A DNA stretch of 64,000 nt, taken from the NCBI RefSeq assembly GCF_020536995.1, contig NC_068355.1, positions 63,355,738 through 63,419,737 on the forward strand, given 5' to 3'. Position 1 is the stretch's first letter, and each line of letters opens with the position of its first letter. Positions 6,838-59,744 of the stretch are shown in pieces. The position numbers and the translations under genes are program-made. The stretch comes from Dreissena polymorpha. Lineage: Eukaryota. The notes below the pieces were generated by a model that saw only the letters and a list, made by a program, of their open reading frames with translations, searched no databases and was not told the origin of the DNA.

Positions 6838-7150
6838 ATTCTATAATAAAACAAGAGGTGTGTTTTTCAGAAACACAATGCCCCCTAATGCGCCGCTTTT
6901 TATTAACTTTTGACCTTGAAGGATGACCTTGACCGTTCACCACTCAAAATGTGCAGCTCCATGAGATACACATGCATCCCAAATATCAAGTTGCTATGTT
7001 CAATATTTCAAAAGTTATTGCAAAACTTTACTGTAAGGTAAAAGTTTTGGGACAGAATGACAGACAGAAAGAAAGAAAGAAAGAAAGAAAGACAGACAGC
7101 CAGGCCAAAACCAATATACCCCCGATCTATCGATCCGGGGGCATAAAAAA
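6838..7150 (+). mobile_element. Tetranucleotide-core interspersed element: gene-like body + (GACA/GAAA)n core + hairpin tail ccccgatctatcgatccgggggcataaaaaa
   Basis: Body tgaccttgaaggatgaccttgacc...atcccaaatatcaagttgctatgttcaatatttcaaaagttattgcaaaac...gttttgggacagaatgacagacag(aaag)n matches copies at 59745-59965 and 61180-61400. The tail contains the palindrome CCCCGAT..ATCGGGGG. Confidence 0.7.
7056..7097. repeat. (GACA)n/(GAAA)n microsatellite core inside the element
   Basis: gacagacagaaagaaagaaagaaagaaagaaagacagacag. Confidence 0.9.
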
Positions 7151-7289
7151 CTTACCATTTTCATATCTGCCATGTTTGTCAAAATTTTTTGAACATTCAG
7201 TATTTACATAACTCCCATGTTCATGTAAATTGTTGACATATTTGACATATGCCATGATTCATTTGACAGTCCATGTGTTCCTTAATATT

Positions 7290-7640
7290 ACATTTTTTAT
7301 GCCCACAGTAGGGTGGCATATAGCAGTTGAATTGTCCATCAGTCAGTCCGTCCGTCCGTCTGTCCGAAACCTTTAACTAAGCTATAAGTTTTGCAATATT
7401 GAAGATAGCAACTTGATATTTTGGCATGCACGTGTATTTAATGAAGCTGCACATTTGAGTGGTGAAAGGTCAAGGTCATCTTTCAAGGTCAAAATTTAAA
7501 AAAATACAATCCAAGGGAAGTAATAAGCTTTAAAAGGGAGATAATTTCTAAACCTGCCAAATGATGTATTAACATTTTATTTCAAAGCGACGCAATAGGG
7601 GGCATTGTTTTTCTGACAAACACATCTCTTGTTTTTTTAT
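7290..7640 (-). mobile_element. Second copy of the same element in inverted orientation; with 6838-7150 it forms a tail-to-tail inverted pair
   Basis: The reverse complement of 7600-7640 (ataaaaaaacaagagatgtgtttgtcagaaaaacaatgcc) matches 6845-6885, and the reverse complement of gacgcaatagggggcattg matches caatgccccctaatgcgc. This copy carries (GGAC)n ccgtccgtccgtctgtcc in place of the (GAAA)n of the partner. Confidence 0.7.
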
Positions 7641-7976
7641 ATGCTTGCAATGCTTATTTTGATTTTGCATGTGTTTTTCATTTAAACATCGCAAAGGTGT
7701 TGTCCTACTCATTTCCACCATGACTTACTTGTATTTCATCTATTAATAATTTGTTATTAGTGTCGAGTAGTTTTAGGTAGCTCTGATATAAAACCTAGAC
7801 TGTAGTCTTAGTTGTTTTATAGCTAACATATAGTTTAATCTAACCTATTCTGAACACGTGCATGTAACAACCAATCATTCACTTTCCCTCCGATATTCAG
7901 TTGCCTGTTGAAAGTTGTTTGAGACAGCCATTGCATTTATTGAATTGCAATATTATATTATTTGTGTGGGATATTT

Positions 7977-8322
7977 TGGATTCCTGCAGGTAACTACTCT
8001 AAATCTTTTATTTATGTTCTCTGTCAATTGTTTGTATTATTATTTAGGACATCTGACGGTTACGGTTGTGTTTATTAGTTATTTATTGAAATAACTTATT
8101 GCGAGTCATATTCACGCCGCCATGCAACGCTAGTCATTATTAATGTGTATTCCACTTGAATGCATACATATATTATCTTGATTATATATCTAATGGCATG
8201 TATTAATTGTTCCTATTTCAGATACCTTTATCGATCTATTAAAACTTTGAAAACATCGATTGATTCGATAGTTTGTCGTCGAACCCCAAGTACGCAAATT
8301 GCGCGTAGCTAGGCCGGCAACA
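7977..8322 (+). repeat. 5' LTR (TG...CA)
   Basis: Matches 12998-13343 over its whole length. Confidence 0.85.
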
Positions 8323-8323
8323 A

Positions 8324-8341
8324 TGGCGCCCAACGTTCAGT
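8324..8341 (+). other. Primer-binding site TGGCGCCCAACGTTCAGT, complementary to a tRNA 3' end (...GGGCGCCA)
   Basis: The TGGCGCCC core sits 1 nt after the 5' LTR terminal CA, the canonical position for an LTR-element PBS. Confidence 0.7.
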
Positions 8342-9059
8342 GAGATCGATCAAATGATATAATTTGGACAATTCGTGTACACAATCCTTGTTCAAGGATC
8401 TACACTTGATGGCCACAAAAGACGTCGTTTAATACCCGGGTTAACGTTAACGCATGCTAAGGGCCCTCTTCAAGACCGTTACGTCACACCATAAGGACCA
8501 AGGACCATTCGTCGCTGGAAGTGTAAAAACTGTGTGTGACTTTGTGAATGAACACTGACATTTGTGATTCTTGCTCATGACGCATGGCGGTGTGGTTAGA
8601 TGTACATTTTATTATTGACCATTTAGTATATTATTTTCAGAAATTGTTTAGTTTGTATCATATTTGTTTTTTTCTTAATGTAAATATCAATTATTTTTGT
8701 CCAATCTAGGTTAAAGATTTTTTTTTTTAAATCAATGCACTAACCATAGGTTGTCCCGTCTAACATACGCCCCTGCATTTGTGTAAACTGTGTTTTCACT
8801 GTCACTAATCCGTTTCCAATAACAATAGAAGTACATAAAGTAGTACAACACAGACAGGTTGACCCGTAGATAGCTCAGGTGATAGTTTAAAGGTCATAAT
8901 TTGGGATCTGTACAATCAATAGATTTACTGCCCACTGTCTTATAAAAAGTTTCAGCCAATGTAAAATCAAATTTGTCTTTAGTTGTTTCAAACTTTCAAC
9001 ATTTGAAACAACGCTCAGTCATTGTAATTTTTAACCAGGTTTTCCGAAGGAAAAAACTG

Positions 9060-9420
9060 GTTATTAGATTGGCGAATGCGGGCGGGCTGGCTGGCTGGCG
9101 GGCTGGCGGGCTGGCGGAACAAGCTTGTCCGGGCCATAACTATGTCGTTCATTGTCATCTTTTAAAATCATTTGGCACATTTGTTCACCATCATTGGACG
9201 GTGTGTCGCGCGAAATAATTACGTCGATATCTCCGAGGTCAAGGTCACACTTTGAGTTCAAAGGTCAAAAATGGCCTTAAATGAGCTTGTCCTGGCCATA
9301 ACTATGTCATTCATTGTGAGATTTTAAAATCATTTGGCACATTTGTTCACCATCATGGTACGGTGTGTCGCACGAAAGAATCACGTCAATATCTCCAATG
9401 TCAAGGTCGCCACGACTAAA
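9060..9420 (-). mobile_element. Nested copy of the tetranucleotide-core family in the LTR-element leader: (CTGG/GGCG)n core at 9085-9118 plus a ~185-bp body duplicated twice (9120-9300, 9290-9420)
   Basis: gggcgggctggctggctggcgggctggcgggctggcgg is followed by two tandem units sharing gcttgtcc.ggccataactatgtc.ttcattgt.a..ttttaaaatcatttggcacatttgttcaccatcat.g.acggtgtgtcgc.cgaaa.aat.acgtc.atatctcc...gtcaaggtc. Confidence 0.55.
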
Positions 9421-10836
9421 AATAGATTATTTTTTTTTAAACAAACTTACAAAGGGGGTTAATTTTGTTTGTTCATTTCAAAAGTTCATTTTGAGTTTTA
9501 TCCCTTTATCAGATTTTTTTTTCACAATGAAAACCTGGTTTTGTGACAATTTTGTCCCTTGTATAAATAGGAAATCGTGGAAACCGAGTTATTCCTTACT
9601 GAAATTAGACTGATCATCTAATTTCATTGAGAAATACTGTTTTGCGTTTAATCCTTGCAAGGTAAAATAATCGCGTCGCTTTAGCGTATTCGAACGGGAC
9701 GAAGAAAAATAAATCGAGGTATTTATTTAAAAGCGAATACATTCGGTTTGTGTTCAGCGCTTTTAAATAATCGATTTATTTGATAACGGAAAAAGGAAAT
9801 TGCGCAATAATTGATTGCGTATAGTTGTACATACGTTGTAGTAATAATTTGTGCGGGTTACACTTGACACTACTTGTGACCAGTGTATTTTTTGGACCGG
9901 AAATAGCGGTATCGATTCTGTACTTGTATGGTTGTACGTGTGTGAGAGTGTGAGAGTGTATTAGTAAATAGTTTAATCGAATTATATTGTTAAATTGTTT
10001 TATAAATGCATATTTATAGTTGTTATTATTATAATTAAATCATATTAGTTCATCAATTTAATTAAATTTATCATTAACATTTATTTAGATTTTTTTTTAA
10101 TTTCTAGTTTGATAAAACTTTAACAATAAGATTGTGATTTAAGTGTAATCTATACGCTGCAGTAATTGTTTATTAAATAAGAGATCATTAATTAAAAAGG
10201 TTTATAAATTAATTAATTAAAAATTACAACTAGATTTATATTAAATAATTGCATGAATGTGTTCAATTATTTGTTGTTATGTTGTATTAGATAACATGTC
10301 AGTTATATTATTATGCATTAGTGGTACAAAGTGAATTCGGTTTATTGATCACTATTGAAATTAGTGATTTAGTGTGTTATTATATTGAATAATTTTGAGT
10401 TGACTAGAAAGGAAACTATTGTAAAACGGAAATACTGGAATGATGATCTGAATGTTGATGAAATTGGAGTGTGTATTATACAAAGTGCTGTGAAACATAA
10501 TTAACACTTAAAAGTGCATACTTATGAAGTGAAATAGACAATTGGTGAACAGTGTTGAGTTTAATTGTGAATTATTGAATTGGAAGTGATATTAACGTCC
10601 AGTGAACAATATTACTGATTGACATAATGAAAATGTATCTAGAGTTATTGGATGTGAACAAATACTAGATACATAATAGTGTTGAATGAATTGTTTTGTG
10701 TTGTAAAGTGCATAAAATATTGTGAAGAGAGGTGAATTTAAGATTAGACTTTGATTTCTGCATATGGTTGGGATCAGTTTCGTAACTGAGTGCATAGTGT
10801 GAAATTCAGTGTGGGTGTGAACGTAATTATTTGAAC

Positions 10837-12579
10837 ATGGATACGGAGAGAGAACTAAGGAGACAAAGAAGGGAGACAAAGAATAAACAACAAACATTAA
10901 AGGAAAAAGAATTGAAAAATCAGAAGGACATTGAAATACTGAATAAAATAAAGGAACGAGACTCAAAGATTCGTGAAATTCAGCGACAAAGAGATGAATT
11001 AATAAAAATGAGATCAGAAAACAACACAGCCCAACATAGAGATGTGAATGATGTAAATGATGTAAAACATAAACAATAAAGAAGGGAAACAGTTGGAGAA
11101 AGATTACAGCACAGCTGTAAAGAGATGGAACATGAAATGAGGACTGAACTTGACTATGATGATGTTGTTGAGGGTGCGGTAGGATTTAAGAATGATGATT
11201 ATCATACCAACAGTTATGAAAGTGACATGGATTCAATAGATGAAGAACTAAGTTGGTTGACTAAGAAGATGGAGGAGACATTCCAGATACATGCCGATTC
11301 TGGGGACAGAATATTTAAAGAGGAGGTGCGATGCAGTACCAAAATACTTGAACCATCTGAGGTTCACGACAGTGAATATGAACACAATAGTGACATTGAT
11401 GAAATTATAAGTGATGATGATATTGCTGAAAAAGCCCTTGAAGCTGAGATAAAGGCAATGAAGTTACAGCAAATGAACTTAAAAGAGGAACTTCATCGGA
11501 AAGAAAAAGCAAAACGATTGAAGGAACAAGAATTATTGCGAGAAACACGTAGGAAACAGAAAGAAGAAAGAATACGGAAACTGAAACGAACAAAACAAGA
11601 ATTGGAACAAGATATAATGGAAACACAGAGCACAATTACGTCATTAGACGAGGAATTGGAACCTGTAGAAACATATGACCGACACAAATATCTAAGAAAT
11701 GCGGAACGGAGAGTGTCACATAATCCACCATTAATGTTGAAACCGAGTGTTCCTAAATTTTCGGACCCAGCTCAATTTACAGAATGGAAAATAGAAATCG
11801 AAAGTATGATTCGGTCAAAAATTTACCAGAAAGACATACTGAAACAGTGCGTTAGAAATGCGATATCTGGAAAACCAAGGAAGGTTTTAGCAACATTGAA
11901 AGCCTAAGCAACTTTAGAAAACATTTTGTCAACGATGGAAAGCAATTTCGGTGATGTAAAAAGCGGACAAAGCATAATGGAAGAATTTTATCAAGCCAGA
12001 CAAAATAAAGACGAAGACATAACGTCATGGGGTATTCGAATTGAAGAAATGATCCAAAGAGCTTTAGAAAAGGGTGAAATACAAGAAAACAAGAAGGAAG
12101 AAATACTGAGAACAAAGTATTGGAAATACTTGAGAAATTCAGAGTTGAAGAATGCTACCAGAGTATTCTATGAAAACTGTCTTACATTTGAAGAGTTACG
12201 GAAACGAGTGAGAAGAGAAGAACAGGAATTGAAAGTTTCACAGGACAGACAAGAACAACCCAAACAGATAAATACAATGCAAATAGATCAACAATTGAGC
12301 ATATTGAATGATCTTACAGAGAAATTACAAAGTATGCAAAAACAACTAGACTTACTAACAAAGGAGAAAGAAGCATCAAAAGACAATAGAAGTGAGAGTG
12401 TGACCAGAGAATACCGGAGAAACGATGCCAGACCACAAACCGGATATAGGAGAACATTTTCACAAGGAAGAGGTTACTCCGGAAACAGAGGTCCATATAG
12501 AGGCAGACGACCGTACGGACAAGATGCTTATCATAGAGACAGCAACTCTCAACAACATTTAAACGGGAACCAGCTCTAA
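10837..12579 (+). pseudogene. Retrotransposon gag-like ORF (frame 1) interrupted by two in-frame TAA stops (11077-11079 and 11905-11907)
   Basis: Track ORFs 10831-11079, 11125-11907 and 11926-12579 all lie in the same frame and are separated only by TAA codons. The protein is coiled-coil and charge-rich, contains VPKFSDPAQFTEWKIEIESMI (retrotransposon gag-like F-W motif) and an Arg/Gly-rich C-terminus, and has no CCHC knuckle. Confidence 0.6.
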
Positions 12580-12653
12580 TTGATGGGGTCAATGAGGGCT
12601 GTGAGGATACCACTATCCCCAAACAGAAACCAGCTGAAAACATTTTTAGTAGA

Positions 12654-12995
12654 ATGGTGGGTAATGCTAATCTATCTACTATTACTATCAACGGCAAAGA
12701 GACAACCGCGCTTATTGACAGCGGGTCGCAGGTCAGTATTGTAACTGAAAAGTTTTACAACGAAATGACACCAAAACCAGAACTGATGTCATTGAATGAA
12801 TTTAATCTTGAATTAAAAGCAGCTAATGGCACCCACATTCCATATTCTGGATATATTCAGACAACAATTGAAAGCAAAATTTTGGACATGAAAGTAGAGA
12901 CCATTCTTCTTGTTGCGCCGGTTGACGAGAGTCATGGTAGTGCTCATGTCATAATTGGCACAAATATAATCAGATATATAAAAGACTTGTACAGT
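12654..12995 (+). CDS. Retroviral-type aspartic protease domain (pro), in the -1 frame relative to gag
   Basis: Has TTALIDSGSQVSIV (D-S/T-G active-site motif) and a downstream HVIIGTNII (the GRD/N-like flap motif). The ORF runs straight into the 3' LTR at 12998, so no pol follows. Confidence 0.75.
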
Positions 12996-12997
12996 GA

Positions 12998-13343
12998 TGG
13001 ATTCCTGCAGGTAACTACTCTAAATCTTTTATTTATGTTCTCTGTCAATTGTTTGTATTATTATTTAGGACATCTGACGGTTACGGTTGTGTTTATTAGT
13101 TATTTATTGAAATAACTTATTGCGAGTCATATTCACGCCGCCATGCAACGCTAGTCATTATTAATGTGTATTCCACTTGAATGCATACATATATTATCTT
13201 GATTATATATCTAATGGCATGTATTAATTGTTCCTATTTCAGATACCTTTATCGATCTATTAAAACTTTGAAAACATCGATTGATTCGATAGTTTGTCGT
13301 CGAACCCCAAGTACGCAAATTGCGCGTAGCTAGGCCGGCAACA
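12998..13343 (+). repeat. 3' LTR
   Basis: Matches 7977-8322. Confidence 0.85.
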
Positions 13344-16300
13344 TTCAGTAAATACTTAAGTTTAATGTAACAGTACAGTTTCTTTACACTGTTTTGTTAC
13401 TATTTCATTTACATCAGTTTCGTGTTGCATACTTTCTAAAAAGCTGATTACACCATCACTTTACATGTACATGTTTATTGTTCCTTTTCCCTCTAATGCA
13501 ATAAACACCACATTGATGTCTTTTGCAACATCCATAATCCTTACATAACATAATGTTTATTTTAATTTAATATCCTTTTGTACTTCTCTCAAACTATTAT
13601 ATAGAACATATTTACTTCCTTAATGCTAACTAGGATTACTAGCTTATTTAAAGTCCTGCATTATAAATCTCTGGATTGCACTTTCGATTCCATGTCCAGC
13701 CAAAAAAATGTGTGAATATGTACAGGAATATTCATGTATTTTCATTCATGTTACATTTGGCAACATTGATGTTCGAATTGCACAATTTTTCACTTGTTGC
13801 TATCCTAATCTGTCTTTGATTTATTCTTATTCATATTTGCGTTTATTGGTGTAAATATGTTTCTTTGTACTTTGTTTTGTTCATTTTGTTATATTGTTCT
13901 GTGTTTCTGCAAAAAAAAATCATATCACTATGATGCTTGCAATATTGAGTCGTTTATGTTTACATTCTACTGACATCTTAATACATTATCTTTTATTTCA
14001 TTCCAACATTACGTTCATAGTATTTCCCATTATCTCCTCCATAGACACCAAGTACTGGTTCTTCCTAGGAAACGGACTCAACAGTATCCATATCTGCCTA
14101 TAATAGGCCATCCTGTAATAGTCAGCAATTGACTGAAGGAACTACGAAGTAGAAGTATTTCAGTGGCAAAATATGTTTTCTTTTCCTTTTGAAAGTATGT
14201 ATTATGTATGTATTATTCATTCAATTATGAAATCTAGTTATAACAATACTAATTGACAATAAAACATACAATTAATTTCACCTCTTCTTGTTTTTCATTT
14301 CTTATTTGTAAATACAGAAAAATATATTATCTTATTATCACTTACAGCATTCATTAAAATACATGGTCGTTTCATTACATCTCCTTTCACTGGCGGCAAT
14401 CATAACAACATCAGCGCCGTATATCTTTTTAAAGATATTTCTTGTTTCAAGATGTCCACCAAGATGGCCGCCAAAACGTCTGTATTATCATAACATTGTG
14501 CCTATACCCATGTTTCGGGTGTTAAAGAATACAACTCAATGACAGCTTGAAAAGATCGATACATCGCTCTTAAAGCATCCTAAAACAAAAATTGCAAATT
14601 TGTAAAATTCAGATCACCAGACATAGTGTAGGTTTATTATGTTACACAGAAACTTTACATGGCGTCTAAAAATAGGCTCCGCCACAATAAGAAGGACCAC
14701 AAATCCATAACGTTGACTCAAATGTGATGATTTTGTATGTCAAACGCCATAGTTTTGGAGACAATGAACACTTTGATTATATTGATGATATAATTAAGCA
14801 GTTGAATTATCAAGAAATATAATTTGTGACATTCCGTTATCCACTATGACCTGACACACAATAACCTGTGTCCATAAAATTTGTCTCAGAGCATTATATT
14901 GTCCGTGTCGTCCTCCTCGTCTTCAGTGCAGAATTGTTTGGATTGTCACAGTTCTTAGTTTTGGCAAGGGCTACATACAGAATTGCAGCGGAGTTAATAG
15001 CGCCTGCAGCTACATCAAGAAGATTTGCGTCCTACAGAACAGTTACAATGTATGATTTTCAATAGTTCGTCAGGTGCAGCATTGCTTTAGGTCATGATTG
15101 GACTTGATTGGTCGTTTACCTGTTTCCATCCCCATTAAGAGGGTTTAATAGTATTTGCCATCCCCATCCACACCATGGTTTGATACTATACGCGCTGGTT
15201 TTGACATGCTGTTGCATGTGATATGTGGGGAAGTCGCTAAGGAGTAACGAGTGCTTCGGAAGTAGCCACTTTCTTTGTGAAAATATTATGACGCAGTTAT
15301 ATTAAGGAATCATTTTACTTTCAACCAAAAAGTTCCACCATCAAGCATTTGTCAAGATTTGATATTTCCTCTTGAGACTTGTTTGGAAGGAGGAATGAAC
15401 TAGCGCATAACTTCATAATGGGAACAGGTTTTATTAATTTCCGAAAGATTGAGTTTTTACCAATGCCGAAAATCCTTGAAGTTCAATCACTGCCTGTGTA
15501 CACATGAACGAAGAGGAACTCATTGCACACTTCGTGTCCAAAGCGTTCTTTCAAAATATTTATATTATACGTTATATGTTCCTTTGACAGTTTGTTTATA
15601 TCGGAGCTGACGAAGACTGTACTTTTAGAAGTCATGCAGGGGCAAGGTCAGCAAATCTGTATCCTCGCCGTTTAACGGGTTGTTGCTATGACGGGAACGT
15701 TCCACTGTTGCTTATCAATATCAACGTCTGCATTCCCTGGTGATAAAATGACATAACGTCCTTTTATAGCCAGAGCTGTGCTGATCAGAGCAATCATGCG
15801 TGCCATGTTTTGTTCTTATCATCGAACACCACTGTCGCTTGTCTGTTATGCCTTACAGTGAAATCTGCATAAGACTCGGCATTTATATATGTCGCATTTG
15901 TTCTATGGTAAACGATAAAGTAAAAAGCCACCATCAAGCACGTAGCGATCTGTTTCAGGAATACAGTTAATCATATCCTCACTTGATGCGTTCTCAGCAT
16001 GATCTTTAATTGCCTGAATGATCTGAGGCTTGTGTGCTTTACGAAGTATGTTTTTGGCTTTAAAAAGGGCAGAAGGATTGGGCTTAGTTCGTACGATAAT
16101 CCGTCTTCAAGGGAAAGATCACCAGTTTTTTGACTCCACAAGGAAACGCTGGTACATAAGGGCAGAATCAATAGTGCGATCTTTAGCAATTTTAACAGCG
16201 GAACAATTCCCACGAGTTTTTAGCTCTGTCTTTTCTCATACATTTATAAGCAAAGGCCGATTTTCCTTTAATATCTGTTAAATCTTGTTCCCAACCTTCT

Positions 16301-20660: not shown

Positions 20661-22434
20661 CAATTTTATCTCTAATGAAAAATCTTAATTTATAGACCAG
20701 TTTTACACTCAATCTCGACATCAATACAGTTTGTGCGTGCACCCTTTATTTTCAGAGAATTTTCAGCGCGAGAACATTTGTACTTAAAGGCTATGTTCTC
20801 AAATTTATACTGACTTCCATATTCCTGTCAACATATTAACATGTAAAAGTATAGAGAGCAGTAGAAGCGAGGCCTCACTTTAATGAATTGCATTTCAATA
20901 CTCGAGGTATCGGGTCTATTCGCGGCCAGTGTGTGTGAATGTCAGAGTTTATATACAGGTCATCGCTGCGTCTTCACGACTACCTTATGTGCTGACCGGA
21001 GTTCGCGGCCAGTAAAATAATCGTTATATAATAAAGACGCTATATCGTGAACTAGCTGAACTGGAATTTTCTTTAAACCAGAAAGATGTTAAATGAAGAT
21101 ATCCAGCGATATAATTATGGTATGTCAATAATAGATTCTTAATGTGTTTTCAACAATACCATGATAAATATTATTTTTAATTAATTTAACAAGAATTATT
21201 CCACCATATTGACCAATGTATTAAGCATGAGCGCGATGATGCCATTATTCATTAATGTAGTAAGGTTCCTTAAATGATTGTCCTTATTGATTAAGTTTGA
21301 ATTACGGGCGGTTTTCTCACCGCGATCATGTGGCGACAACTTTTTTTGGGCCAGTGAAACCCCTGAAAAGCGTTTTATTATGCTATTTGTATTTGTCTGC
21401 GGTATTGATTTTTACTGGACAATAAACTATAAATGTTTCTTTTAAACATCAATAGCTTATTGGTTGTTTGTGGAGATAAAGTATTTTTAATGCAACATAT
21501 GGATTCCTTGTGAAAAAAAAACATCAAAAAATCATCAAAAAGTTTATTATAGACAAGTGAAAAGATTGCATAACTTTTGAACTTATATATATATAGTTAA
21601 AAAAAATAAAATTCAAACTAATTTAAAAACTGCACATCAAGACCTACAGTCTGATTATGATCATTTTGCACATCAACATGTTTAAAAAAACACTGTGCTT
21701 GCTTAGTAAAAAGAACTTCATACCATAACATTTTTAAAATGAGTGCACCCGACACTTTTAGAAAAAAAATCCGAAAATCATTTTAATAAAAAATGTTGGC
21801 CTTACCTTCCATAAACTCCAACTGCAATCAACGCCGTATATCTTTTTTAAAAGATATTTCTTGTTTGCAATACAATAAATCGTTATAATATTGTATTAAT
21901 TGTGTTTTTCTTTTATTGACACGAACTAAGCTAATGATGCCAATAAACACGAACAATGCATGTATAATTGACATACATATGTGAACATAATTATTATCTG
22001 GTGTTTTGCGAATATTTGTTTAAGAATAGATTAAACGTTGCATATGAGCAAGACTAATTCTACTCGACTATTGACCGTAAAGCGTATATTAGCGGCACTG
22101 TATTACTGTATGATTTGTATATTATCAATACGCGTACTAAATCAGTTGTTTTATACATGATGAGTGTGGAAAGTTAGTTCGGCGAGAATTCTATGTTTAA
22201 GGTTGATAACATTAAAACGTGAACGTATGGAAACATAACTGTTTCATCCGTATCAATATAAAATAATAACTGTGTAAAAGCCTATTTAAAATATCGATTT
22301 ATATTGGGAAATTGTGACAGATATTGATAAATATACAGCTATCTCGACCAAAACTTGGATAAAATAACATATTATTCACGACGTTTCTGATACCAGTAAG
22401 TTTTTTTTTCAATTATAATAACTATAATTATAAT

Positions 22435-22575
<141 letters not shown>

Positions 22576-24793
22576 AATCTCTATGTGGCTTTTTTTTATT
22601 TTAAACTGTTTATACTTATATTTATGCATTTAATGAATTGTATACAAAAGTGACTTCAACAATAAATGTCAAAATAAAATATGAATAATAGTGCTGCTAG
22701 CATCAACAAAGGCAAGTAAATATGTTAACAGTATAGCACTTTATTGATACAAAATAAAGAAAAACAGCCAATATTGTAGTATCATTTGCCGAGAGTGACT
22801 TACCGGTAGATGAATTACCTGTAGTGTATGGTTACTAATTGGGATTGTTCAATTCAGTTTATATGCAAATATGTGTAATCAAAAGAATTTCACACCATTC
22901 GTCTTTGAAATGAAGCAACGTGATATCTCATATATGGCTATTGTCATTTGTGGCACTACAGTAGTAACAATGCAGCTTAGGCTACAACAAATTGATGATT
23001 TGTTCTATGGATTTTTGCGTCCCAAAAATGGAGCGAGCGAGCGAAATAAAAATAAATTTATTTTTATTATATTTTTTGTTTAATCACAGGCGAGCGAAAA
23101 GCGAAAAATAAAAAAAATTTACATATTGTCTATGTCAATTGATATATTTTGCCAATTAAATGCATGATATCTGCAAAATACCAGTACAAGATCATTTAGA
23201 AGTAATAATTGAGTTTAAGCCCTTATCAAATGTTTGTAAAAAGAAATAAAAATGTCTCTAATAGCTGTTCTGCTTTCTCACACCAGGTAGTGATTACTTA
23301 AATTTAACATGTTACATGTAGTTTTCATTATCAAAGTTATATAGGAAGCTCAGTTTTCCGTCAATGATGGTTTAATAACATGACACAATAAATAATACAA
23401 CAAATATAAAGCATAAGCAGTGATTTTTCTTCGCGTCATATTTTACAGCCTGTGCCTTTTTGATTGAGGATCGTGTGATAAACCATGAAATTGGGAATAT
23501 TCATTATTATTATGATTATAGATATTAACAGTATACCAATTGTTAATAAGTGCATGTTTAACTGCTTTCTAAAATATATATTATAAAGTGCTAGGAAATT
23601 AAACTGCTGTATGATAAACTCAATAAATTTATTAAAAACAATTGACTTATTTTTTGGAAATTTTGGCGAGACTTTTAAAAGGAAAAAAGTTACTTTTTGG
23701 GAAACAGCTTTTTTACAATTTTCAATTTGAACATAACCTATAAGAGTATGTAATTTTGGGCAAAAACACTGACACAAATATATCTCGAATTTGTATTAGT
23801 TCTATATAGCATAGGTTATACTCGATGCATTACGTTTTTTATATTTTAGCACTGTTAAAATTAGAAATGAGAAGCTTAAGGTTTGTAAAGTGAAAAAAAA
23901 CAACATAACTTCCTAATGAAAGAAAAATAAGAAATTGGCAGTTAAAGTATGTTTTTAATATAAAAAAAGTCAATCAAATGCCAGTAAAGTTGTTTAGGTC
24001 CAAAAAGTTTCTTCACTTTCTTACTTATGTTAAATTCATGTTTTAGGGGCATTATATATAATGTACACCTTGCACTTAGCCATCAGCAGTTTGAACTAGT
24101 AGATAGGTGGTTCGTACAATTTATATTTCATTCGACATTTTTTGTCCAGTTCAACTGCGACACTCCTTTGCATGTTTTTTTAAAACATTTTAACTTAATC
24201 AATACCAACAAGTTTATTGCTTTACCAATCAAACGCATACCGGCGACATTTCACATTCTGATGTAGATTCGGTTAAAATTATGAAATAACTCAAATCATC
24301 TGTGATGCAATCACTAATTGCCCCGGTGAAAATTAACATGCCATTTGTGTCTTTTGCAGACATAACAAGACATACGAACGCTGCCATTTGTGTTTACCAT
24401 AAACCAATCTAATAGCACAAAGCGTTATAACACTCTATGTTGTAAAATACGTAGACAAAATAAAACTAAATTATTTAATAAATAGGTGCGCAGTAATTTT
24501 GTTTGCTGCGGGCGCAAAATAAAAATAAAAATATTTTTATTTAGTTTTAAGATTTTTAGGTGCGGCGAATCCATCGAACATTTAATCACTTTGTTGTGGC
24601 CTTAACATAAGTAGACTTATTTTCAGCGCTTTTACTATCCGTTACGACGATTCGTGATGTAAACGTACAGATATTATTCAATTTGCAAATTTTTATATTA
24701 TGTTATATTTATGCTTCAGCCTAAACAAATAGAATAGCTTTGTGTATGCTGTTCAAATATCAACCTTTCCACATCGTGAGCAAAACTAAAGAA

Positions 24794-25894
24794 ATGAAGT
24801 TAGAAGACAACACCACAGCCAACACGAATGGCACTCGCAACACTTCTCTCCTAACAGAAGAGTTCTTTCTGGAAGAACACTGCATTTTCGTTAAATGTGT
24901 ATCGGTCATTATCGGTCTGATTTCACTGGCATCCAGCATATTAGCATTAACAGTCTTAAGCAGAACACGAAAGATGCCCAAATCTAACACATACCTTGTA
25001 ACGGCTCTTCTCGTATTCGACTGTATGTTTGTGACATTTTCGACGGTACGAAAATTCATACAGGAACCTTTTCTTAACACCAGCATCGCCGTTTTGATGA
25101 TGTCCGCTCTGCAACTTGCATATACGACTGTTGGAATGATGTCGCTCGAAAGATGTATTTTATTCTACAAGCCAATGGTTTACATGCGCCTCTATTCTAC
25201 GAAATTCATAATGATGGTCACAGCAGCTGTTTGGATTTCAGAATTGGGCATATTCCTTTGTATCCGTTATGCAATTTGTTATTTGCGATTTAAAACCATA
25301 GCTGTGTTTTCGCAAGCACAATTGTGTAACAATTTAGTCACTATATACTACAGTATATTAGTTACGTTTGTACTAGTATCGTCTATGGTTTGCTACTGGA
25401 TTATATTCGTCATTGTTCAACAAAAAAACATTCGTACGAATGAGGGAGTAATGTCCTTTAGATCAGCCGCCCATTTTATAAAGACAGAATACAAGAACAC
25501 CGCACTAGTTCTTGTTTTTTGGGTTCTGATCCTGGTGTCCTCTCTGACATATGGTATAATTATAGTTTTAACACGTTATATGGATCTAAGCGCCTACATG
25601 GTGCGGCTTTCTTTGGACGTGGTCTCGACGTTAAACTGTCTATTGGACCCATTTCTGTACGTGCTGTGGTTCAAAGAATGCAAACTCGAGTTGCTCAAAA
25701 TATTCTCCTGTTTGGGCCAGGTAATAAAGGACAAAGCTGCATCACTACACTATGAGGTGTTCGACATAGTGCCTTATGAGCGTACCTCAGTGATCAGATC
25801 TATGCCACGTAAATTTGAAGAGAAACGTGAAGTGGACATGAACAATACAAGTAGACATATTAATCTTGCATTTTACGACGAGACAACGCTTTAG
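24794..25894 (+). CDS. Intronless class-A (rhodopsin-like) G-protein-coupled receptor, orphan or lineage-specific
   Basis: Single 1.1-kb ORF. N-terminal N-glycosylation sequons (NTT, NGT, NTS) precede seven hydrophobic segments. TM2 has LVFDCMF, the end of TM3 has LERC (DRY variant), TM7 has NCLLDPFLY (NPxxY variant), and a helix-8-like FKECKLELLKIFSC is followed by a Ser/Thr-containing tail. The track start 24740 is a TTG; real ATGs are at 24746 and 24794. Confidence 0.8.
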   Translation: MKLEDNTTANTNGTRNTSLLTEEFFLEEHCIFVKCVSVIIGLISLASSILALTVLSRTRKMPKSNTYLVTALLVFDCMFVTFSTVRKFIQEPFLNTSIAVLMMSALQLAYTTVGMMSLERCILFYKPMVYMRLYSTKFIMMVTAAVWISELGIFLCIRYAICYLRFKTIAVFSQAQLCNNLVTIYYSILVTFVLVSSMVCYWIIFVIVQQKNIRTNEGVMSFRSAAHFIKTEYKNTALVLVFWVLILVSSLTYGIIIVLTRYMDLSAYMVRLSLDVVSTLNCLLDPFLYVLWFKECKLELLKIFSCLGQVIKDKAASLHYEVFDIVPYERTSVIRSMPRKFEEKREVDMNNTSRHINLAFYDETTL

Positions 25895-26467: not shown

Positions 26468-26826
26468 TACCGAACAAAATACGAAATTAATTATTGGAAT
26501 GGGTCAAATTATAGATGTTAGTTATAAATAATCTCACAATTTCTATCAACACGATAGCGTGTGCTGCGACCTAAGTAAATAGGATATACCGAACAAATAC
26601 GAAATGAAGGATTGGAATCGGTCAAATTATACATGGAAGTTATAATTATTTTCACAGTTTCTATCAACACGATAGCGTGTGGTGCGACCTATGAAAATAT
26701 GATATACCGAACAAAATACGAAATGAAGGATTGGAATCGGTCAAATTATACATGGAAGTTATAATTATTTTCACAGTTCCTATCAACACGATAGCGTGTG
26801 GTGCGACCTATGTAAATATGCCTATC
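26468..26826. repeat. ~120-bp tandem repeat x3
   Basis: accgaacaaa(a)tacgaaatgaaggattggaatcggtcaaattatacatggaagttataattattttcacagtt.ctatcaacacgatagcgtgtggtgcgacctatg.aaatatg repeats three times, the first copy more diverged. Confidence 0.85.
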
Positions 26827-28960: not shown

Positions 28961-29428
28961 TTGGATGTGTGTTCTTAAACGTGCATCTCTATATGTTTTT
29001 ATCAAAAGAAAATAATTTAGGAACAAACATAATGATATATTACCGGATTAGAAAAAAAACACAATAACTCTTCGGCGGTGCATATAACCATCAAATGAAT
29101 CTACTGTATTTTAGCTAGTTATTATACCCTTCGCAAAAGAAGTTTGCGAGGGATTTATCGTCGGTCTGTAGGTCCTCATAACATGTTATAATCTTTTATT
29201 TTAAGGATTACATTTAAACTTCAAATACAAATCATGCCATCACTGTAAAGCATATTTGTGCTAGAACGAGTTTTATTCCATGTAATCTACTCGTTTCCGA
29301 GTTCCTTGCGCTTGAACATAATTAAAAAAGCGGAAATGGGGCATCAGTTTCGTTTGCGACAAAGCTTAAATTGACGTTTAACATGTTGAGTCACACAATG
29401 TGAGCCTTGCTCTAGGAAAACTGGGCGT

Positions 29429-29706
29429 AATGCTTATACGTAAAGTGTAATCCCAGAGTGGCACAGACCACATGGTTAACAACGCTTAATGCATATACGT
29501 AAAGTGCAATCCCAGATTGGCACAGACCACATGCTTAACAACGCTAAATGAATATACCTAAAGTGTATTCCCAGATTGGCATAGACCACATGCTTTACAA
29601 CGCTTAATGAATATACGTAAAGTGTAATCCCAGATTGGCACTGACCACATGCTTAACAACGCTTAATGCATATACCTAAAGTGTAATCCCAGATTGGCAC
29701 AGACCA
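29429..29706. repeat. ~60-bp tandem repeat x4.5
   Basis: aatgcatatacgtaaagtg.aatcccaga.tggcacagaccacatg.ttaacaacgctt repeats with a few substitutions. Confidence 0.85.
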
Positions 29707-30229
29707 CATGCTTAACAAGCACGACATATCCCGCTGTTTTGGATTTTTTCTTGTAACGGAAGTTTCTTCTAAACAAAAATCCAGGGTATGCGGAAAGCAT
29801 CCTTTTATTTATAAGCCTGTGTGCACTGCAAGGGCTTATCTCGAACGACGTTTTACGCACATGCATCAAGCTCAGTCTTCTCGGAGCAAGGCTGATCATT
29901 GCGGTGTGAATACTTCCAATGATCTTGTTCCTATATATTGTTCCTAGAAAATCCGATTTAAGTTAAGTAGTATGTACTTTGTATTATGTACTTTGTATAT
30001 GTTGGCACACTTTGGACATCAATTTAGGGGGCATCAAATTGTTTTTGAATGATGAACAATTCAAAATTCTCAAACTACTTTAAATATTTTGCTGAACGAT
30101 GCAAAAAGATTAGAATTAAACGAGAATGTTGAAAGGCATAAGTGTAAGTTCACATAAAAATAGCCTTCTTCTTCATCTTCTGCAAGTCCCTTATATTGTA
30201 AACGATTGGGTATGGAGCACTAATCTATG

Positions 30230-31440: not shown

Positions 31441-32385
31441 GGGTTGGGGTGGGGCCGGATCAGAGATTTTCACTCATTTGTTAGTTTTTTTTTACATTAA
31501 CTTCTTTATTTCTACACCAATTCACTTCAAATTGATACTGAACCTCTCTTATGACAATACGGTAAATCTCAACTATGCATGGCCCCATTTCCAACCCTAG
31601 GGCGCCCCGCCTACATAGACCACACCCACCCAAAATTGCCTTTTACTATAATTTCTTCATTTCTACACCGATTCACTTAAAAAAATTGATACTGAACCTC
31701 TCTTATGACAATACAGTCAATTTCAACTATGCATGGCCCCGTTACCAACCCTGGGTCGCCCCGCCCACATAGACCACACCCACCCAAAATTGCCTTTAAC
31801 TATAATTTCTTCATTTCTACACCGATGCACTTCAAAATGATACTGAACCTCTCTAATGACAATACGGTCAATCTCAACCATGCATGGCCCCATAACCAAT
31901 CCTGGGGCGCCCCGCCCACATGACCACACACATCCAAAATTGCCTTTTACTATAATTTCTTCATTTCTATACTGATTCACTTTAAATTGAAACTGAACTT
32001 CTTTTTTGACAATACGGCCAATCTCAACTATGCATGGTCCCATTACCAACCCTGGAGCGCCCTGACCACATAGGCCACACCCACCCAAAATTGCCTTTTA
32101 CTATATTTTTTTCATTTCTACACCAATTCACTTCTAATTGATACTGAACTTCTCTTATGACAATATGGTCAATCTCATCTATGCATGGCCCAATTACCAA
32201 CCCTGGATTGCCTCATCCACATAGGCCACACCCACCCAAAGTTGTCTTTTACTATTACTTTTTCATTTTCACACCGATTCACTTGTGATTGATACTGAAC
32301 TTCTCTTATGACAATACGGTAAATCTCAACTATGCATGGCCCCATTACCAATCCTGGGGCGCCCCTGGATCAAACATGCGGCGTG
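31440..32385. repeat. ~150-bp tandem repeat x6
   Basis: The recurring block ctgaac.tctcttatgacaatacggt.aatctcaactatgcatggccccat.accaaccctgg..cgccccgcc.acatagaccacacccacccaaaattgcctttt.actataatttcttcatttctacaccgattcactt occurs at a 145-162-bp period; the marker atgcatgg is at 31575, 31729, 31880, 32035, 32180 and 32342. Confidence 0.85.
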
Positions 32386-42454: not shown

Positions 42455-43432
42455 TTATGGTATATACCACATTTCGAAAATCCACATCGATCGGTTGCCC
42501 TTTTTGAAGCCTTACCTGATCAAAAATCAGACGAAATATCTATTTAATTTAGTATATGGTCATTCTTACAATTTTTTTTTGAAACGTTTTTCTAACGTTT
42601 TCTTCCAAGAATATTGCTGACACCGTTTTAAGTGAATTTTTCTAAGACCGTTTTATGTCAAAAAATCTTCTTATAACCTAAAACAAATTTCGTTCGTAAA
42701 ACGATTCTATCTGCACTATAAATCTCAATCTCCTACGCAGTGGCCTCCCTTATATTAGAAGTTACTGACCGGGCGAAGCAAGGGAAGTAACTGCTGTGAG
42801 GAGTTTCTATAAAAATCTGCATTCAGAAATCTGTATTCAGAACTCAATCTGTTGTGCACGTCTGCATCTAACGCTTACCACAAGTTTTACGACAAATTCT
42901 TGACGCAGACGAATAGGGTAGCGTCTATTTTCATTTGTGAAAACAATAGTTCGATACAGATCTGTTCCGTGCTTAAATTTTGAAAGGCTTGGGTAATTAT
43001 TTTTCATAAGCGTTTCAAACACTGATGTAAATGGAAAGGTTATCTATTTAAATAGTCGGTTATTGTTTGAAATTATTGATTTGTGAAATTCGCGGATGGC
43101 GATATCGAACTACATTATACCACGTGACGCCATTCTTCCCTGTATCTTGCACCTATGCTTTTAACGCCATCGGCGCTCTCGTTATTATTAGCGACAGGAT
43201 CGGGAGGCTTTGAAGAGCTAAACCGCCTCTTGGAATCCCAAAGAGTTACCACGTTTCAACTACATGATTGTTTATTTATTTATATTTGTGTAATGTGTTC
43301 GTTTGTTTTCTGTTGTTTTAAGCCCTTTATTTATGCGAAATACTAGTGGATACGCAATTTTAATTATTAATTTGAAAAAAATAAAAAAATGTAGACTTGT
43401 TTTAAACTATTTCTCTATGCAAAAAACCCACC

Positions 43433-43640
<208 letters not shown>

Positions 43641-43759
43641 TCACTTTAGGTCATTGGTTTAAAAAAAGTCACACGATCAAATATTAGAATCAAAGTACTG
43701 ACAGTACTGGTGTGACGATGCTTTTGAAGAGGATGGATATAAAAGCATCAATTTAAGTT

Positions 43760-44937: not shown

Positions 44938-45756
44938 TACACATCTCGTAAGCGGTAATGCGGTCCTAATATGCATGTCAAAATGTAAGCGAAATATGTA
45001 AACAAAACGGTAGCCTGTCAGGAATGTTTGAATTAATGAAGAAAATAATGTATTGATGTAAGTTTATTTAAGAAATGTACAGAAAATATGTTAAATAAGC
45101 AATGGCGATATTTTTCTCAGCCACATGATTGTTGATAGTTTGATATCACAAAATGAAAGTGAAAGTAGAACTGTCAAAAATGACAATCTGTCAATGTGTG
45201 TTTTTTTGCTGGCACGAGAGGGCGATTACACTCAATGTGTTCACATTTTTTACCATAGGCTTTGCCAATGACCTTTATAGTATTGGTGGCTTTGTTATTT
45301 TTTATTGCTATCATGTAACTGCATGATTGTGTATATGTTTACACTACACAAAGCATAAATAATGATATAAATATACTGATTGAGCTTATAATAATCTGAT
45401 AACTATAGCCAGGTCAATTAAGTACATAAAATACAATTGTTTGTCCTGATTTCATGAAGACTGAAGATATTTATGCACATAGAGTATCAAGATATAGGTT
45501 GATCCACAAATGAAAAGTATTATTGATCTGTGTTCGGTGCAGGCTCTATTTCCATGACTGTGAAGGTTAAATTTTCATGTAAAAAGGATGTAAATTTTTT
45601 GCTTAAGTATTTCATTCAACCATTGAATATAATGAATTGTTCTGCATATAATTTGCCATATTGATAGGTGTTTGTTTGGTGATCAACAGGAGATGACCAG
45701 GGTGCCAGAGAAAAGGGATAAACACTTGAGATCTGGTCAGAGCTTACGTGTGTGAA

Positions 45757-48700
45757 GTTAGCCTATTTAGCCTATTTAGCCTATTTAGCCTATTTAGTAC
45801 ATAGGTTGAAACAAACATCCTATTTAGCCTATTTAGCCTATTTAACAGCCTCTTCAGCCTTTTTAGCCTATTTTAGCCTATTTAGCCTATTTAGTAAATA
45901 GGTTGAAACATACATCCTATTTAGCATATTTAGCCTATTTAACAGCATTTTCAGCCTATTTAGCCTATTTAGTATATAGGTTGAAACATACATCCTATTT
46001 AGCCTATTTAGCCTATTTAACAGCCTTTTCTGCCTATTTAGCCTATTTAGTACATAGGTTTAAACATACATCCTATTTAGCCTATTTAGCCTATTTAGTA
46101 CATAGGTTGAAACAAACATCCTATTTAGCCTATTTAGCCAATTTAACAGCCTCTTCAGCCTTTTTAGCCTATTTTAGCCTATTTAGCCTATTTAGTAAAT
46201 AGGTTGAAACATACATCCTATTTAGACTATTTAGCCTATTTAACAGCATTTTCAGCCTATTTAGCCTATTGAGTATATAGGTTGAAACATACATCCTATT
46301 TAGCCTATTTAACAGCCTTTTCAGCCTATTTAGCCTATTTAGTGCATAGGTTTAAACATACATCATATTTAGCCTATTTTGCCTATTTAGTACATAGGTT
46401 GAAACAAACATCCTATTTAGCCTATTTAGCCAATTTAACAGCCTCTTCAGCCTTTTTAGCCTATTTAGCCTATGTAGCCTATTTAGTAAATAGGTTGAAA
46501 CATACATCCTATTTAGCCTATTTAGCCTATTTAACAGCCTCTTCAGCCTTTTTAGCCTATTTTAGCCTATTTAGCCTATTTAGTAAATAGGTTGAAACAT
46601 ACATCCTATTTAGCCTATTTAGCCTATTTAACAGCATTTTCAGCCTATTTAGCCTATTTAGTATATACGTTGAAACATACATCCTATTTAGCCTATTTAG
46701 CCTATTTAACAGCCTTTTCAGCCTATTTAGCCTATTTAGTACATAGGTTTAAACATACATCCTATTTAGCCTATTTAGCCTATTTAGCCTATTTAGTACA
46801 TAGGTTGAAACAAACATCCTATCTAGCCAATTTAACAGCCTCTTCAGCCTTTTTAGCCTATTTTAGCCTATTTAGTAAATAGGTTGAAACATGCATCCTA
46901 TTTAGCCTATTAAGCCTATTTAACAGCATTTTCAGCCTATTGAGTATATAGGTTGAAACATTCATCCTATTTAGCCTATTTAGCCTATTTAACAGCCTTT
47001 TCAGCCTATTTAGCCTATTTAGTACATAGGTTTAAACATACATCATATTTAGCCTATTTAGCCTATTTAGTACATAGGTTGAAACAAACATCCTATTTAG
47101 CCTATTTAGCCAATTTAACAGCCTCTTCAGCCCTTTTAGCCTATTTTAGCCTATGTAGCCTATTTAGTAAATAGGTTGAAACATACATCCTATTTAGCCT
47201 ATTTAGCCTATTTAACAGCATTTTCAGCCTATTTAGCCTATTTAGTACATAGGTATAAACATACATCCTATTTAGCCTATTTAGCCTATTTAGTACATAG
47301 GTTAAAACAAACATCCTATTTAGCCTTTTTAGCCAATTTAACAGCCTCTTCAGCCTTTTTTAGCCTATTTTAGCCTATTTAGCCTATTTAGTAAATAGTT
47401 TGAAACAATCATTCTATTTAGCCTATTTAACAGCATTTTCAGCCTATTTACTATATAGGTTGAAACAGACATCGTATTTAGCCTATTTAGCATATTTAAC
47501 AGCCAATTTAGAAAGTTAAGTACATAGGTTGAAATATACATTGTATTTAGCCTATTTAGCCTATATAACAGCCTTTTCAGCCTATTTAGCACATGCCTTT
47601 TTAGCCTATTTAACCTCCTTTTCAACCTATTTAGCCTATTTAGTAAATAGGTTGAAACAAACAACATCTTATTTAGCCTATTTAAGAGCCTTTTCAGCCT
47701 ATTTAGCTTATTTAGTACATAGGTTGAAAAATACATCATATTTAGCCTATTAAACAGCATTGTAGCATATTAAGCCTATTTAGTACATAGGTTGAAACAT
47801 ACATCCTATTTAGCCTATCTAGCCAATTTAACAGCCTCTTCAGCCTTTTTAGCGTATTTTAGCCTATTAAGCCTATTTAGTAAATAGGTTGAAACATACA
47901 TCCTTTTAGCATATTTAGCCTATTTAACAGCCTTTTCAGCCTATTTAGCCGATTTTAGTACATAAGTTGAAACAAACATCCTATTTAGCCTATTTAACAG
48001 CCTTTTCAGTCTATTTAGCTTATTTAGTACATAGGTTGAAAAATACATCCTATTTAGCATATTTAACAGCATGTTCTGTATATTTAGCCTATTTAGTACA
48101 CAGGTTGAAACATACATCCTATTTAGCTCATTTTAGCCAATTTAACAGCATTTTCAGCCTATTTAGGCCCTTTAGCCTATTTAACAGCCTTTTCTGCCTA
48201 TTTGAGTACATAGGTTGTATCAAACACCCTATTTAGCCTATTTAGTCTATTTAACAGCATTTTCAGCCTATTTAGCCTATTTAGTACACAGGTTGAAAAA
48301 TACGTTCTATTGAGCCTATTTAACAGTCTTTTCAGCCTATTTAGTACATAGGTTGAAATATACACCCTATTTAGCCTATTTAACAGCCTTTTCAGCCTAT
48401 TTAGCCTATTAAGTACATAGGTTGAAACATACATTCTATTTAGTCTATTTAGCCTATTTAACAGCATTTTTAGCCTATTTAGCCTATTTAGTACATAGGT
48501 TGAAACATACATTCTATTTAGTCTATTTAGCCTATTTAACAGCATTTTCAGCCTATTTCGCATGTTAAGTACATAGGTCGAAAAATACATCCTATTAATC
48601 CTATTTAACAGCCTTTTCAGCCTATTTAGCCTATTTAGTAAATAGATTGAAACAATCAACATCCTATTTAACCTTGTTTACAGCCTTTTCAGCCTATTTA

Positions 48701-59169: not shown

Positions 59170-59700
59170 TCGTTTTTATAAAAAATCGATACAACTGTAC
59201 ATAATAGATACTTATTGTCATCATTATACATTTTTACTTTCACAACATCACATATATATATATATATTTAACAAAATAGCACATATGTATTACGCGACAT
59301 CAAAGATCAATTTAAACGTAAACACTGACTAGATTTGTAAGGCTTTTCAATAATTATCTACCTGAGTAATATATGCACTTATTTGTTAAGTACCAAACAT
59401 TATTTTTGAGCAGAAGGATACACAAAAAACAAATGCCATATGCTTGACGATTGTATACACCTTTTAATTGAACTTAATTTAATTAGATACTAATTAATAG
59501 TCATCATTATACATTTCACGTTCACAGCATCACATATATATATATTTAACAAATCAACTGATATGTATTACACAACATCAAATATTTATTTAAACGTAAA
59601 ACTGACAAGATTTGTACGGCTTTTCAATAATTATCTATCTGAGTAATGCACTTATTTTTTAAGTACCTAACATTGTTTTGGAGCAGAAATTATTTTAAAA
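59170..59700. repeat. ~270-bp tandem duplication x2, with dispersed relatives at 52405-52495 (85-bp segment) and 62440-62600
   Basis: Both units share catcattatacattt...cacatatatatatatttaacaaa...atatgtattac.c.acatcaaa.at..atttaaacgtaaa.actgac.agatttgta.ggcttttcaataattatcta.ctgagtaat...gcacttattt. The segment ggatacacaaaaaacaaatgccatatgcttgacgattgtatacaccttttaattgaacttaatttaattagatactaatt matches 52405-52495. Confidence 0.75.
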
Positions 59701-59744
59701 ATTCATTCAAATAGTAAACAAGAGCTGTGTTTGTGATACACAAT

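Follow-up and report, generated by a model that had tools for sequence, protein, structure and literature searches.

A gag–protease LTR element of Dreissena polymorpha, very probably a dead and deleted Ty3/gypsy copy

INTRODUCTION

The internal regions of LARD and TRIM elements are non-coding, and this reduced structure is common to all members of such families. PEG10, a mammalian gag-pro gene that was domesticated from Ty3/gypsy and uses a −1 frameshift, and the PNMA genes are single-copy host genes; they have intact open reading frames (ORFs), and neither long terminal repeats (LTRs) nor a primer-binding site (PBS). In the bivalve Dreissena polymorpha, the Steamer-like elements—Ty3/gypsy elements of the Mag C clade—are young, with near-identical LTRs, and numerous degenerate copies of them lack parts of Gag-Pol or of the LTRs (PMC9210306). 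The element that we describe here is also from D. polymorpha. It lies between positions 7902 and 13343, with its termini as we propose them below, of a 64,000-nucleotide stretch of the forward strand (assembly GCF_020536995.1, contig NC_068355.1, positions 63,355,738–63,419,737); this whole stretch is the window, and positions in the text refer to it. An initial annotation described the element as LTR, PBS, gag, protease and LTR without the rest of pol, and offered two explanations: a non-autonomous family mobilized in trans in the manner of LARD and TRIM elements, or loss of pol by internal deletion.

We favor the second. Stated broadly, the element is very probably a dead, deleted Ty3/gypsy copy. 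Stated specifically, with a probability that we put at roughly 0.7, it had 421-bp LTRs, was flanked on integration by a 6-bp target-site duplication (TSD), and suffered a single post-integration deletion that began in the protease and ended within the 3′ LTR.

The comparison with described systems can be made point by point. Like LARD and TRIM elements, the copy has LTRs and a PBS without reverse transcriptase (RT) or integrase. Unlike them, it carries in its interior a 580-codon gag and a protease, both with significant Pfam matches; its paralogs extend further than it does; and its two LTRs are apparently unequal. With PEG10 and PNMA it shares a gag of the PNMA/Ty3 type, a protease reached via a −1 frameshift (putative in the window copy), and the lack of RT and integrase. 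A domesticated host gene of this kind was considered and rejected on account of the LTRs, the PBS, the in-frame stops, the deletion junction and the many copies of the family. Compared by description, the Steamer-like elements have one uninterrupted Gag-Pol ORF (PMC9210306), whereas gag and pro lie in different frames here. Bivalve Ty3/gypsy elements with a PNMA-type gag, represented by two contigs (L002 and L003) and two proteins (P0058 and P0112), resemble the window copy in their TG...CA LTRs, tRNA PBS, PNMA capsid and D(S/T)G protease subfamily, and in an in-frame UUUAAAC site followed by a hairpin. The window copy differs from them in having two stops in gag and in lacking RT, RNase H, integrase, the 3′ untranslated region (UTR) and part of the 3′ LTR. 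Because its protease is 33–37% identical to those of the full-length relatives, we assign it to a different family within the clade. It is an ordinary degenerate LTR retrotransposon copy.

MISSING POL AND THE PROTEASE–LTR JUNCTION

The initial annotation reported no RT, RNase H or integrase in the element, and this holds for the entire window: when remnants of the three were sought throughout the 64 kb by tblastn with three complete Ty3/gypsy pols, the protease region alone was matched (12654–12983). Pol, in the order RT–RNase H–integrase, is absent from the window copy and present in P0058, P0112, L002 and L003, and because these relatives keep it we take the window copy to be a deleted derivative rather than an intact member of its kind.

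What is left is a retropepsin frame (12558–12997, + strand), −1 relative to gag, with its DSG at 12717–12725 and its end at ...IIGTNIIRYIKDLYSD. It abuts the 3′ LTR, as had been noticed, and in fact runs into the right repeat with no spacer between the two. The proteases most similar to it do not stop there. Beyond the junction, the nearest Dreissena paralog, P0012 (86% identical), reads ECPDDKWKAAFLA, and P0013 reads DCPDD; both then go on into a conserved D.W..AF motif, and in P0015, P0018, P0020, P0058 and P0034 this motif and a further domain of ~100 amino acids (aa) are found before RT. Since the paralogs read past the same point, the protease ORF has been cut at the repeat junction, and its truncation relative to P0012 supports the loss of pol by internal deletion.

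The proposed deletion junction, from protease to U3, lies at 12997–12998 (+). It reads DLYSD followed directly by TGGATTCC, and the string that spans it is ...GACTTGTACAGTGATGGATTCCTGCAGG.... At the joint itself the sequence is AGTGA-TG-GATTCC, where paralogs have Asp and then Glu or Asp (GAT GAN); judging from the sequence, the TG may be a 2-nt microhomology of protease and U3. There is no polypurine tract next to the 3′ LTR, and protease coding sequence (...AAAAGACTTGTACAGTGA) adjoins it instead. From the equivalent point in the protease of L002, it is a further ~3.7 kb to the 3′ LTR.

TERMINAL REPEATS, PRIMER-BINDING SITE AND TARGET SITE

The initial annotation judged the LTRs, by eye, to be a nearly identical pair of 346 bp. 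When aligned, the direct repeats at 7977–8322 and 12998–13343 are each 346 bp long, co-terminal and 100% identical, with 0 mismatches. Just two copies of the sequence occur within the window; both start with TG and end with CA, and their immediately flanking bases are unlike. Recent insertion or gene conversion had been suggested as the source of this likeness. Conversion is not needed to account for the identity of the LTRs, yet it could have produced it, as could assembly polishing.

One base past the terminal CA of the left LTR lies a PBS for tRNA-Lys of the CUU type (Lys1,2): TGGCGCCCAACGT, at 8324–8336 (+), agrees at 13 of 13 positions with the start of the tRNA-Lys1,2 PBS as published, TGGCGCCCAACGTGGGGC (PMC1084362). 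Foamy viruses have the same tRNA-Lys1,2 PBS (PMC3386198). The window holds no tRNA gene, and so no tRNA-Lys gene with which the PBS might be compared directly.

The termini are less simple. No TSD flanks the two repeats as called, TATTT preceding the left one and TTCAG following the right. TTCAGT follows both LTR copies, at 8337 and at 13344, and the initial annotation, which had remarked on both of these facts, suspected that the true termini might differ from those it gave. The suspicion appears to have been well founded. Upstream of the left repeat, at a distance of 75 bp, is a TTCAGT followed directly by TG (7896–7901, +; TG at 7902), and this hexamer is identical to the six bases past the right LTR (13344–13349, +); these we propose as the left and right TSD copies. 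The right repeat would thus be truncated at its 5′ end, the left LTR would start at 7902, and the 4–6 bp TSD expected for Ty3/gypsy elements would be a perfect 6-bp TTCAGT with the boundary placed there. Probably, then, the full LTR is 421 bp (7902–8322, +, TG...CA), in which 7977–8322 recurs at the 3′ end and 7902–7976 is the putative extension, and the 3′ LTR is a 346-bp remnant (12998–13343, +), 100% identical to 7977–8322, from which the first ~75 bp would be absent.

The string TTCAGTTG has one occurrence in the 64 kb, on the + strand, and none on the − strand. When the upstream sequence was shuffled, a match to the hexamer followed by TG arose in 0.36% of cases over 100 bp and in 1.2% over 500 bp (p 0.0036 and 0.012, respectively). 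The LTR's terminal inverted repeats give no ground for choosing between a start at 7902 and one at 7977. Nor did proteins or contigs bear on the matter: when ORF fragments of 22 aa or more were taken in six frames from 7860–8345, the left LTR with its flanks, no database protein matched them at E ≤ 10; a look-up of the 50-aa ORF within the LTR gave no result; exact-pattern scans of metagenome contigs, with the LTR end plus PBS and with the repeat start, matched neither; and for neither P0002 nor P0010, two NCBI Dreissena gene models, did an exact-protein look-up yield a record.

Two other accounts of the right-hand end were tried and rejected. The 3′ repeat might have belonged, as its 5′ LTR, to a tandem element downstream that had lost its PBS, but the shared sequence ends after the six bases TTCAGT. 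Or the element might have inserted into a copy of its own leader, but the flanks have no similarity to the leader.

FAMILY AND FULL-LENGTH RELATIVES

Nearly all database homologs of the two ORFs, gag and protease, are hypothetical proteins of D. polymorpha, and a single 90% cluster contains at least 28 gag gene models from many of its chromosomes. Because the homologs are many gene models dispersed across chromosomes, we place the element in a dispersed family of many copies, and near-identical paralogs suggest that this family was probably active recently. One of them, L001 (a 941-bp Logan contig, SRR31514802), is 97% identical to the window copy over 861 bp of gag-pro. The two differ by 15 synonymous and nine non-synonymous codon changes, a synonymous excess that is, at the level of sequence, the signature of copies made from functional elements. 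When aligned with 11503–12860 of the window, L001 is seen to have a 402-bp deletion of its own in gag, between two ACAAAAYAA direct repeats; internal deletions thus occur in this family.

Further afield, a HMMER scan with P0015, a longer Dreissena protease paralog, found 552 relatives. P0058 and P0112 have Pfam domains in the order protease, RVT_1, RT_RNaseH, Integrase_H2C2, rve, and in P0074 a PNMA gag is joined to the same type of protease. L002, an ENA contig, has LTRs of 620–640 bp, 94% alike, around a PNMA gag that is followed directly by a 1349-aa ORF for protease, RT, RNase H and integrase; L003, also an ENA contig, has the same gene order. By its domain order, the architecture of these relatives is that of Ty3/gypsy. 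The family of the window element seems undescribed and, in kind, a standard Ty3/gypsy element.

The same type of retroelement protease also forms the N-terminus of P0039, a 1589-aa protein of Mytilus galloprovincialis (VDI03178.1), where it is accompanied by a STAND NTPase and a long ankyrin-repeat region. The gene model is probably chimeric, having been drawn across a piece of transposon.

GAG, PROTEASE AND A PREDICTED FRAMESHIFT SIGNAL

Gag is a pseudogene of 580 codons (10837–12579, +), in one frame that is broken by exactly two in-frame TAA codons, as the initial annotation had it; these are at 11077–11079 and 11905–11907. Its N-terminal half is coiled-coil-like, and a PNMA-type capsid and an Arg/Gly-rich tail follow. 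Against Pfam PNMA, the capsid domain common to Ty3/gypsy Gag and PNMA genes, it scores 31.5 bits (curated cut-off 25); comparison with the sequences in the PDB yields weak matches to PNMA2; and it is 28% identical (E 3e-31) to the gag part of the gag–protease protein P0074. Much closer is DPMN_180210, an intact D. polymorpha gag of 583 aa that is 81% identical and has Leu and Thr at the two positions where the window has TAA. Because this protein is uninterrupted, and colinear with the window gag over its whole length, from the initial Met to the final residue, the window gag can be regarded as a pseudogene of a real ORF whose start and stop were rightly called. At the C-terminus (12380–12579) the window gag and its relatives are without a CCHC zinc knuckle and have in its place a tail rich in Arg, Gly and Tyr, RGYSGNRGPYRGRRPYG, which is presumably the nucleic-acid-binding part of gag.

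The protease scores 30.6 bits against Pfam gag-asp_proteas (cut-off 28.2), so that both ORFs called as gag and protease in the initial annotation stand above the Pfam cut-offs for their families. With the N-terminus of P0058, a protein that continues through RT and RNase H to integrase, the window protease shares 37% identity (E 4e-22), and its LIDSGS is invariant in the protease alignment (A1).

Where the two genes overlap, the gag frame reads CA T TTA AAC GGG, and contains, 13 nt ahead of its stop, a putative slippery heptamer, T TTA AAC (12558–12564, +), that keeps the X XXY YYZ register; a slip of −1 there would give FKREPALIDG..., which is the protease frame. UUUAAAC is found at the gag/pro overlap of the paralog L001 too, and it recurs in the same register just before the gag stop once in L002 and twice in L003, in which pol is likewise in the −1 frame. 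The position of the putative signal is kept in three independent elements, those of the window, L002 and L003. In these distant relatives the heptamers are at 8054–8060 (L002) and at 1077–1083 and 9926–9932 (L003); the reading after the slip is FKRE in L003, as in the window, and FKLK in L002.

A hairpin is predicted 6 nt past the heptamer (12571–12601, +), with a stem of 7 bp, a bulged A and 6 bp. Hairpins are predicted to start at similar distances in L002 (6 nt) and L003 (7 nt). That of L001 is a perfect 14-bp stem with a z-score of −3.45, equalled by 0 of 200 shuffles; among the hairpins of the window, L001, L002 and L003, it alone clearly beats the shuffles. We infer from the folding model that the hairpin would act as a stimulator of frameshifting. 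In L001, TCA replaces the gag stop TAA, and the same A-to-C change perfects the stem.

THE LEADER AND ITS NESTED REPEAT

The leader, or 5′ UTR, is unusually long, as the initial annotation had remarked: it extends for 2.5 kb between the LTR and gag (8323–10836, +) and has no ORF of more than 82 aa. The corresponding distance in L002 is ~0.9 kb, making the window leader ~1.6 kb longer. Its GC content varies from 45% (8323–8600) to 18% in a low-complexity, AT-rich block (9961–10340) that could be an expansion or another insertion.

Within the leader, in reverse orientation, lies a composite repeat of the pearl/DTC84 type (9033–9540, − strand). As described in bivalves, pearl/DTC84 elements consist of a flank, one to five core repeats of ~160 bp, a tetranucleotide microsatellite and another flank, the flanks having inverted repeats (PMC3879986). 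The order of modules in the nested repeat fits this architecture, reversed on the + strand. Its arms (9033–9056 and 9517–9540) form an imperfect inverted repeat of 24 nt, 79% alike; its core repeats (9122–9246 and 9284–9408; 125 nt aligned) are 90% alike and spaced 162 bp from start to start; and its microsatellite, (GGCGGGCT)n, is a (GGCG/GGCT)n tract (9081–9116). It is thus like pearl/DTC84 in its architecture, having flanks with inverted repeats, ~160-bp cores and a tetranucleotide tract at the end of the array; the tract is GGCG/GGCT here and ACGG in pearl/DTC84. On the + strand the repeat is flanked by TT at both ends, which fits an AA target duplication and is also expected by chance in AT-rich DNA.

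The initial annotation had placed a nested element at 9060–9420 and called it a copy of a tetranucleotide-core element present elsewhere in the window. The repeat is real, and its true span is larger than was thought; the architecture is indeed that of the other structure, at 6842–7641, but it is no copy of that structure, with which it has just a ~35-nt motif (75–77%) in common. That other structure is made up of two pearl/DTC84-like copies, head to head. Its outer arms (6842–6906 and 7577–7641) are 86–90% complementary, its inner blocks (6898–7021 and 7381–7504) 88%, and its tetranucleotide tracts are (GAAA/GACA)n at 7058–7105 and (GTCC)n at 7340–7366. It ends 255 bp short of the site at which the retrotransposon inserted, and a diverged relative of it is found at 59699–59969.

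HISTORY OF THE COPY AND ALTERNATIVE EXPLANATIONS

The intact element, roughly 9 kb long by comparison with its relatives, would have been transcribed from its 5′ LTR, and reverse transcription would have been primed by tRNA-Lys at the PBS. Gag would have been translated as such, and a −1 frameshift at U UUA AAC, helped by the hairpin, would have yielded a Gag-Pol with protease, RT, RNase H and integrase. The parts for this life cycle were detected in the window or in relatives, and we infer their functioning by analogy. The copy would then have integrated at TTCAGT, duplicating these 6 bp; under the model, the empty site would have read ...CCGATA TTCAGT AAATAC..., CCCTCCGATATTCAGTAAATACTTAAG. 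Thereafter, one deletion at the DNA level would have extended from just past the protease core into the element's own 3′ LTR, taking with it, on the scale of a full-length relative, ~3–3.7 kb of pol and 3′ UTR, along with whatever polypurine tract there was, and ~75 bp of U3.

Such a deletion would account at a single stroke for the missing pol, the truncated protease, the want of a spacer and purine tract, the apparent lack of a TSD and the unequal LTRs; because it ran into the 3′ LTR, the repeat that can be detected is 346 bp even with an LTR of 421 bp. Reverse transcription rebuilds both LTRs in full and at equal length. Unequal LTRs therefore imply that the deletion took place in chromosomal DNA, after integration, and the copy as it now stands therefore cannot have transposed. 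Several later hits on it are unlikely when its LTRs show no substitution in 346 bp; the template RNA was probably defective already, and passed on the two TAA codons of gag and perhaps also the leader's pearl/DTC84-type repeat. The defective RNA of the parent may have been copied by the proteins of other elements, so that trans-mobilization may be partly right for the parent, if not for a gag-pro-only form.

A number of observations weigh against this history. The 75-bp extension of the LTR rests on one coincidence test, and no second copy of the LTR was retrieved. The 346-bp repeat as called already opens with a canonical TG, and under the 421-bp model the TG at 7977 must be due to chance (~1 in 16) or to deletion microhomology. 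The third TTCAGT, 13 nt past the 5′ LTR at 8337, is itself a ~1% coincidence that no simple model predicts; lying past the PBS, it is probably no more than that. L002 has no obvious long purine tract or clean TSD either, which makes the lack of a polypurine tract, by itself, weak evidence: in this clade both criteria are soft. And no close paralog joined to RT is present among annotated Dreissena proteins, for which repeat masking and fragmented gene models could be responsible.

The last of these points is what one would expect of the first explanation in the initial annotation, a non-autonomous family that consists of gag and pro only and transposes as it is with RT and integrase supplied in trans: the annotated Dreissena homologs of gag and protease are all short, and none is joined to RT. 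The identical LTRs and intact PBS would suit such a family, and gag stops beside undiverged LTRs suggest a defective template RNA copied in trans. It founders, in our view, on the two nearest protease paralogs, P0012 and P0013, which read through the junction, and on the ends: there is no TSD around the 346-bp repeats and a perfect 6-bp one if the left LTR is 75 bp longer, and LTRs of 421 and 346 bp cannot result from reverse transcription. The 3′ LTR, moreover, has no purine tract beside it, and no database protein corresponds to 7860–8345 in six frames, that of protease into LTR included. We therefore hold it to be very unlikely. That the gag-pro-only form is the master of a young non-autonomous subfamily in Dreissena, borrowing RT and integrase and priming its plus strand without a canonical polypurine tract, strikes us as highly improbable; were it true, the lack of annotated protease–RT paralogs in Dreissena would be real and not an annotation gap.

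Deletion from the protease into the LTR is not the only way in which the two could have been brought together. If the 346-bp repeat, which is exactly TG...CA, were the complete LTR, a second copy might have inserted in the protease region, and recombination between LTRs or between elements might have followed. Integrase joins LTR ends precisely to their target, so the exact junction would be explained, and the missing TSD with it. At least two or three separate events are required, however, and nested insertion with recombination inside the element would keep the outer TSD, which is absent at the called termini. The protease ORF is not resumed past the right LTR, no remnant of pol lies downstream, and the TTCAGT-TG at 7896–7903 is left as pure chance; we regard this course of events as unlikely. 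It is also conceivable that the junction and the identical LTRs were both made by the assembly, through collapse or misjoining at a repeated LTR, for 100% identity together with an abrupt junction is how a misjoin in a young multi-copy family might look. Misjoins normally occur in shared sequence, though, and protease and U3 have 2 nt in common; the flanks, furthermore, are those expected of one insertion site at which 6 bp were perfectly duplicated. We think an artefact of this sort very unlikely, and a single deletion in an integrated copy with 421-bp LTRs is the explanation that we retain.

OTHER FEATURES OF THE WINDOW

Some 40 kb away from the element, a 236-aa ORF (54032–54742, −) resembles RT in that it matches Pfam RVT_1 over the C-terminal half of the domain (E 3e-15). 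It was considered as a remnant of the element's pol and rejected, its match to the gypsy pol P0112 being at chance level (E 0.3); it may be what is left of another retroelement, possibly a non-LTR one. An intronless ORF of 384 aa (24740–25894, +) has a weak match to the rhodopsin family of seven-transmembrane proteins (21.7 bits, below the Pfam cut-off of 30.5), and may be a gene for a G-protein-coupled receptor.

Tandem repeats are plentiful. A satellite of ~6 kb (45600–51600) is composed of 69–78-bp units of TTTAGCCTA-like 9-mers, and further arrays are found at 1–1000, 22399–22604, 26477–26820, 29366–29718, 31529–32373, 43379–43662 and 60455–61031. They include an (AAT)n/(ATT)n palindrome and periods of 59, 118, 144 and 151 bp; at the start of the window, a 9-bp array gives rise to a spurious poly-Val ORF.

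IMPLICATIONS

The finding touches no open biological question. Its lesson is for annotation: a deletion that clips the 3′ LTR lends a dead retrotransposon odd termini, no TSD and a reduced set of genes. The family itself is of modest use, in repeat libraries and as a source of insertion-polymorphism markers in an invasive mussel.

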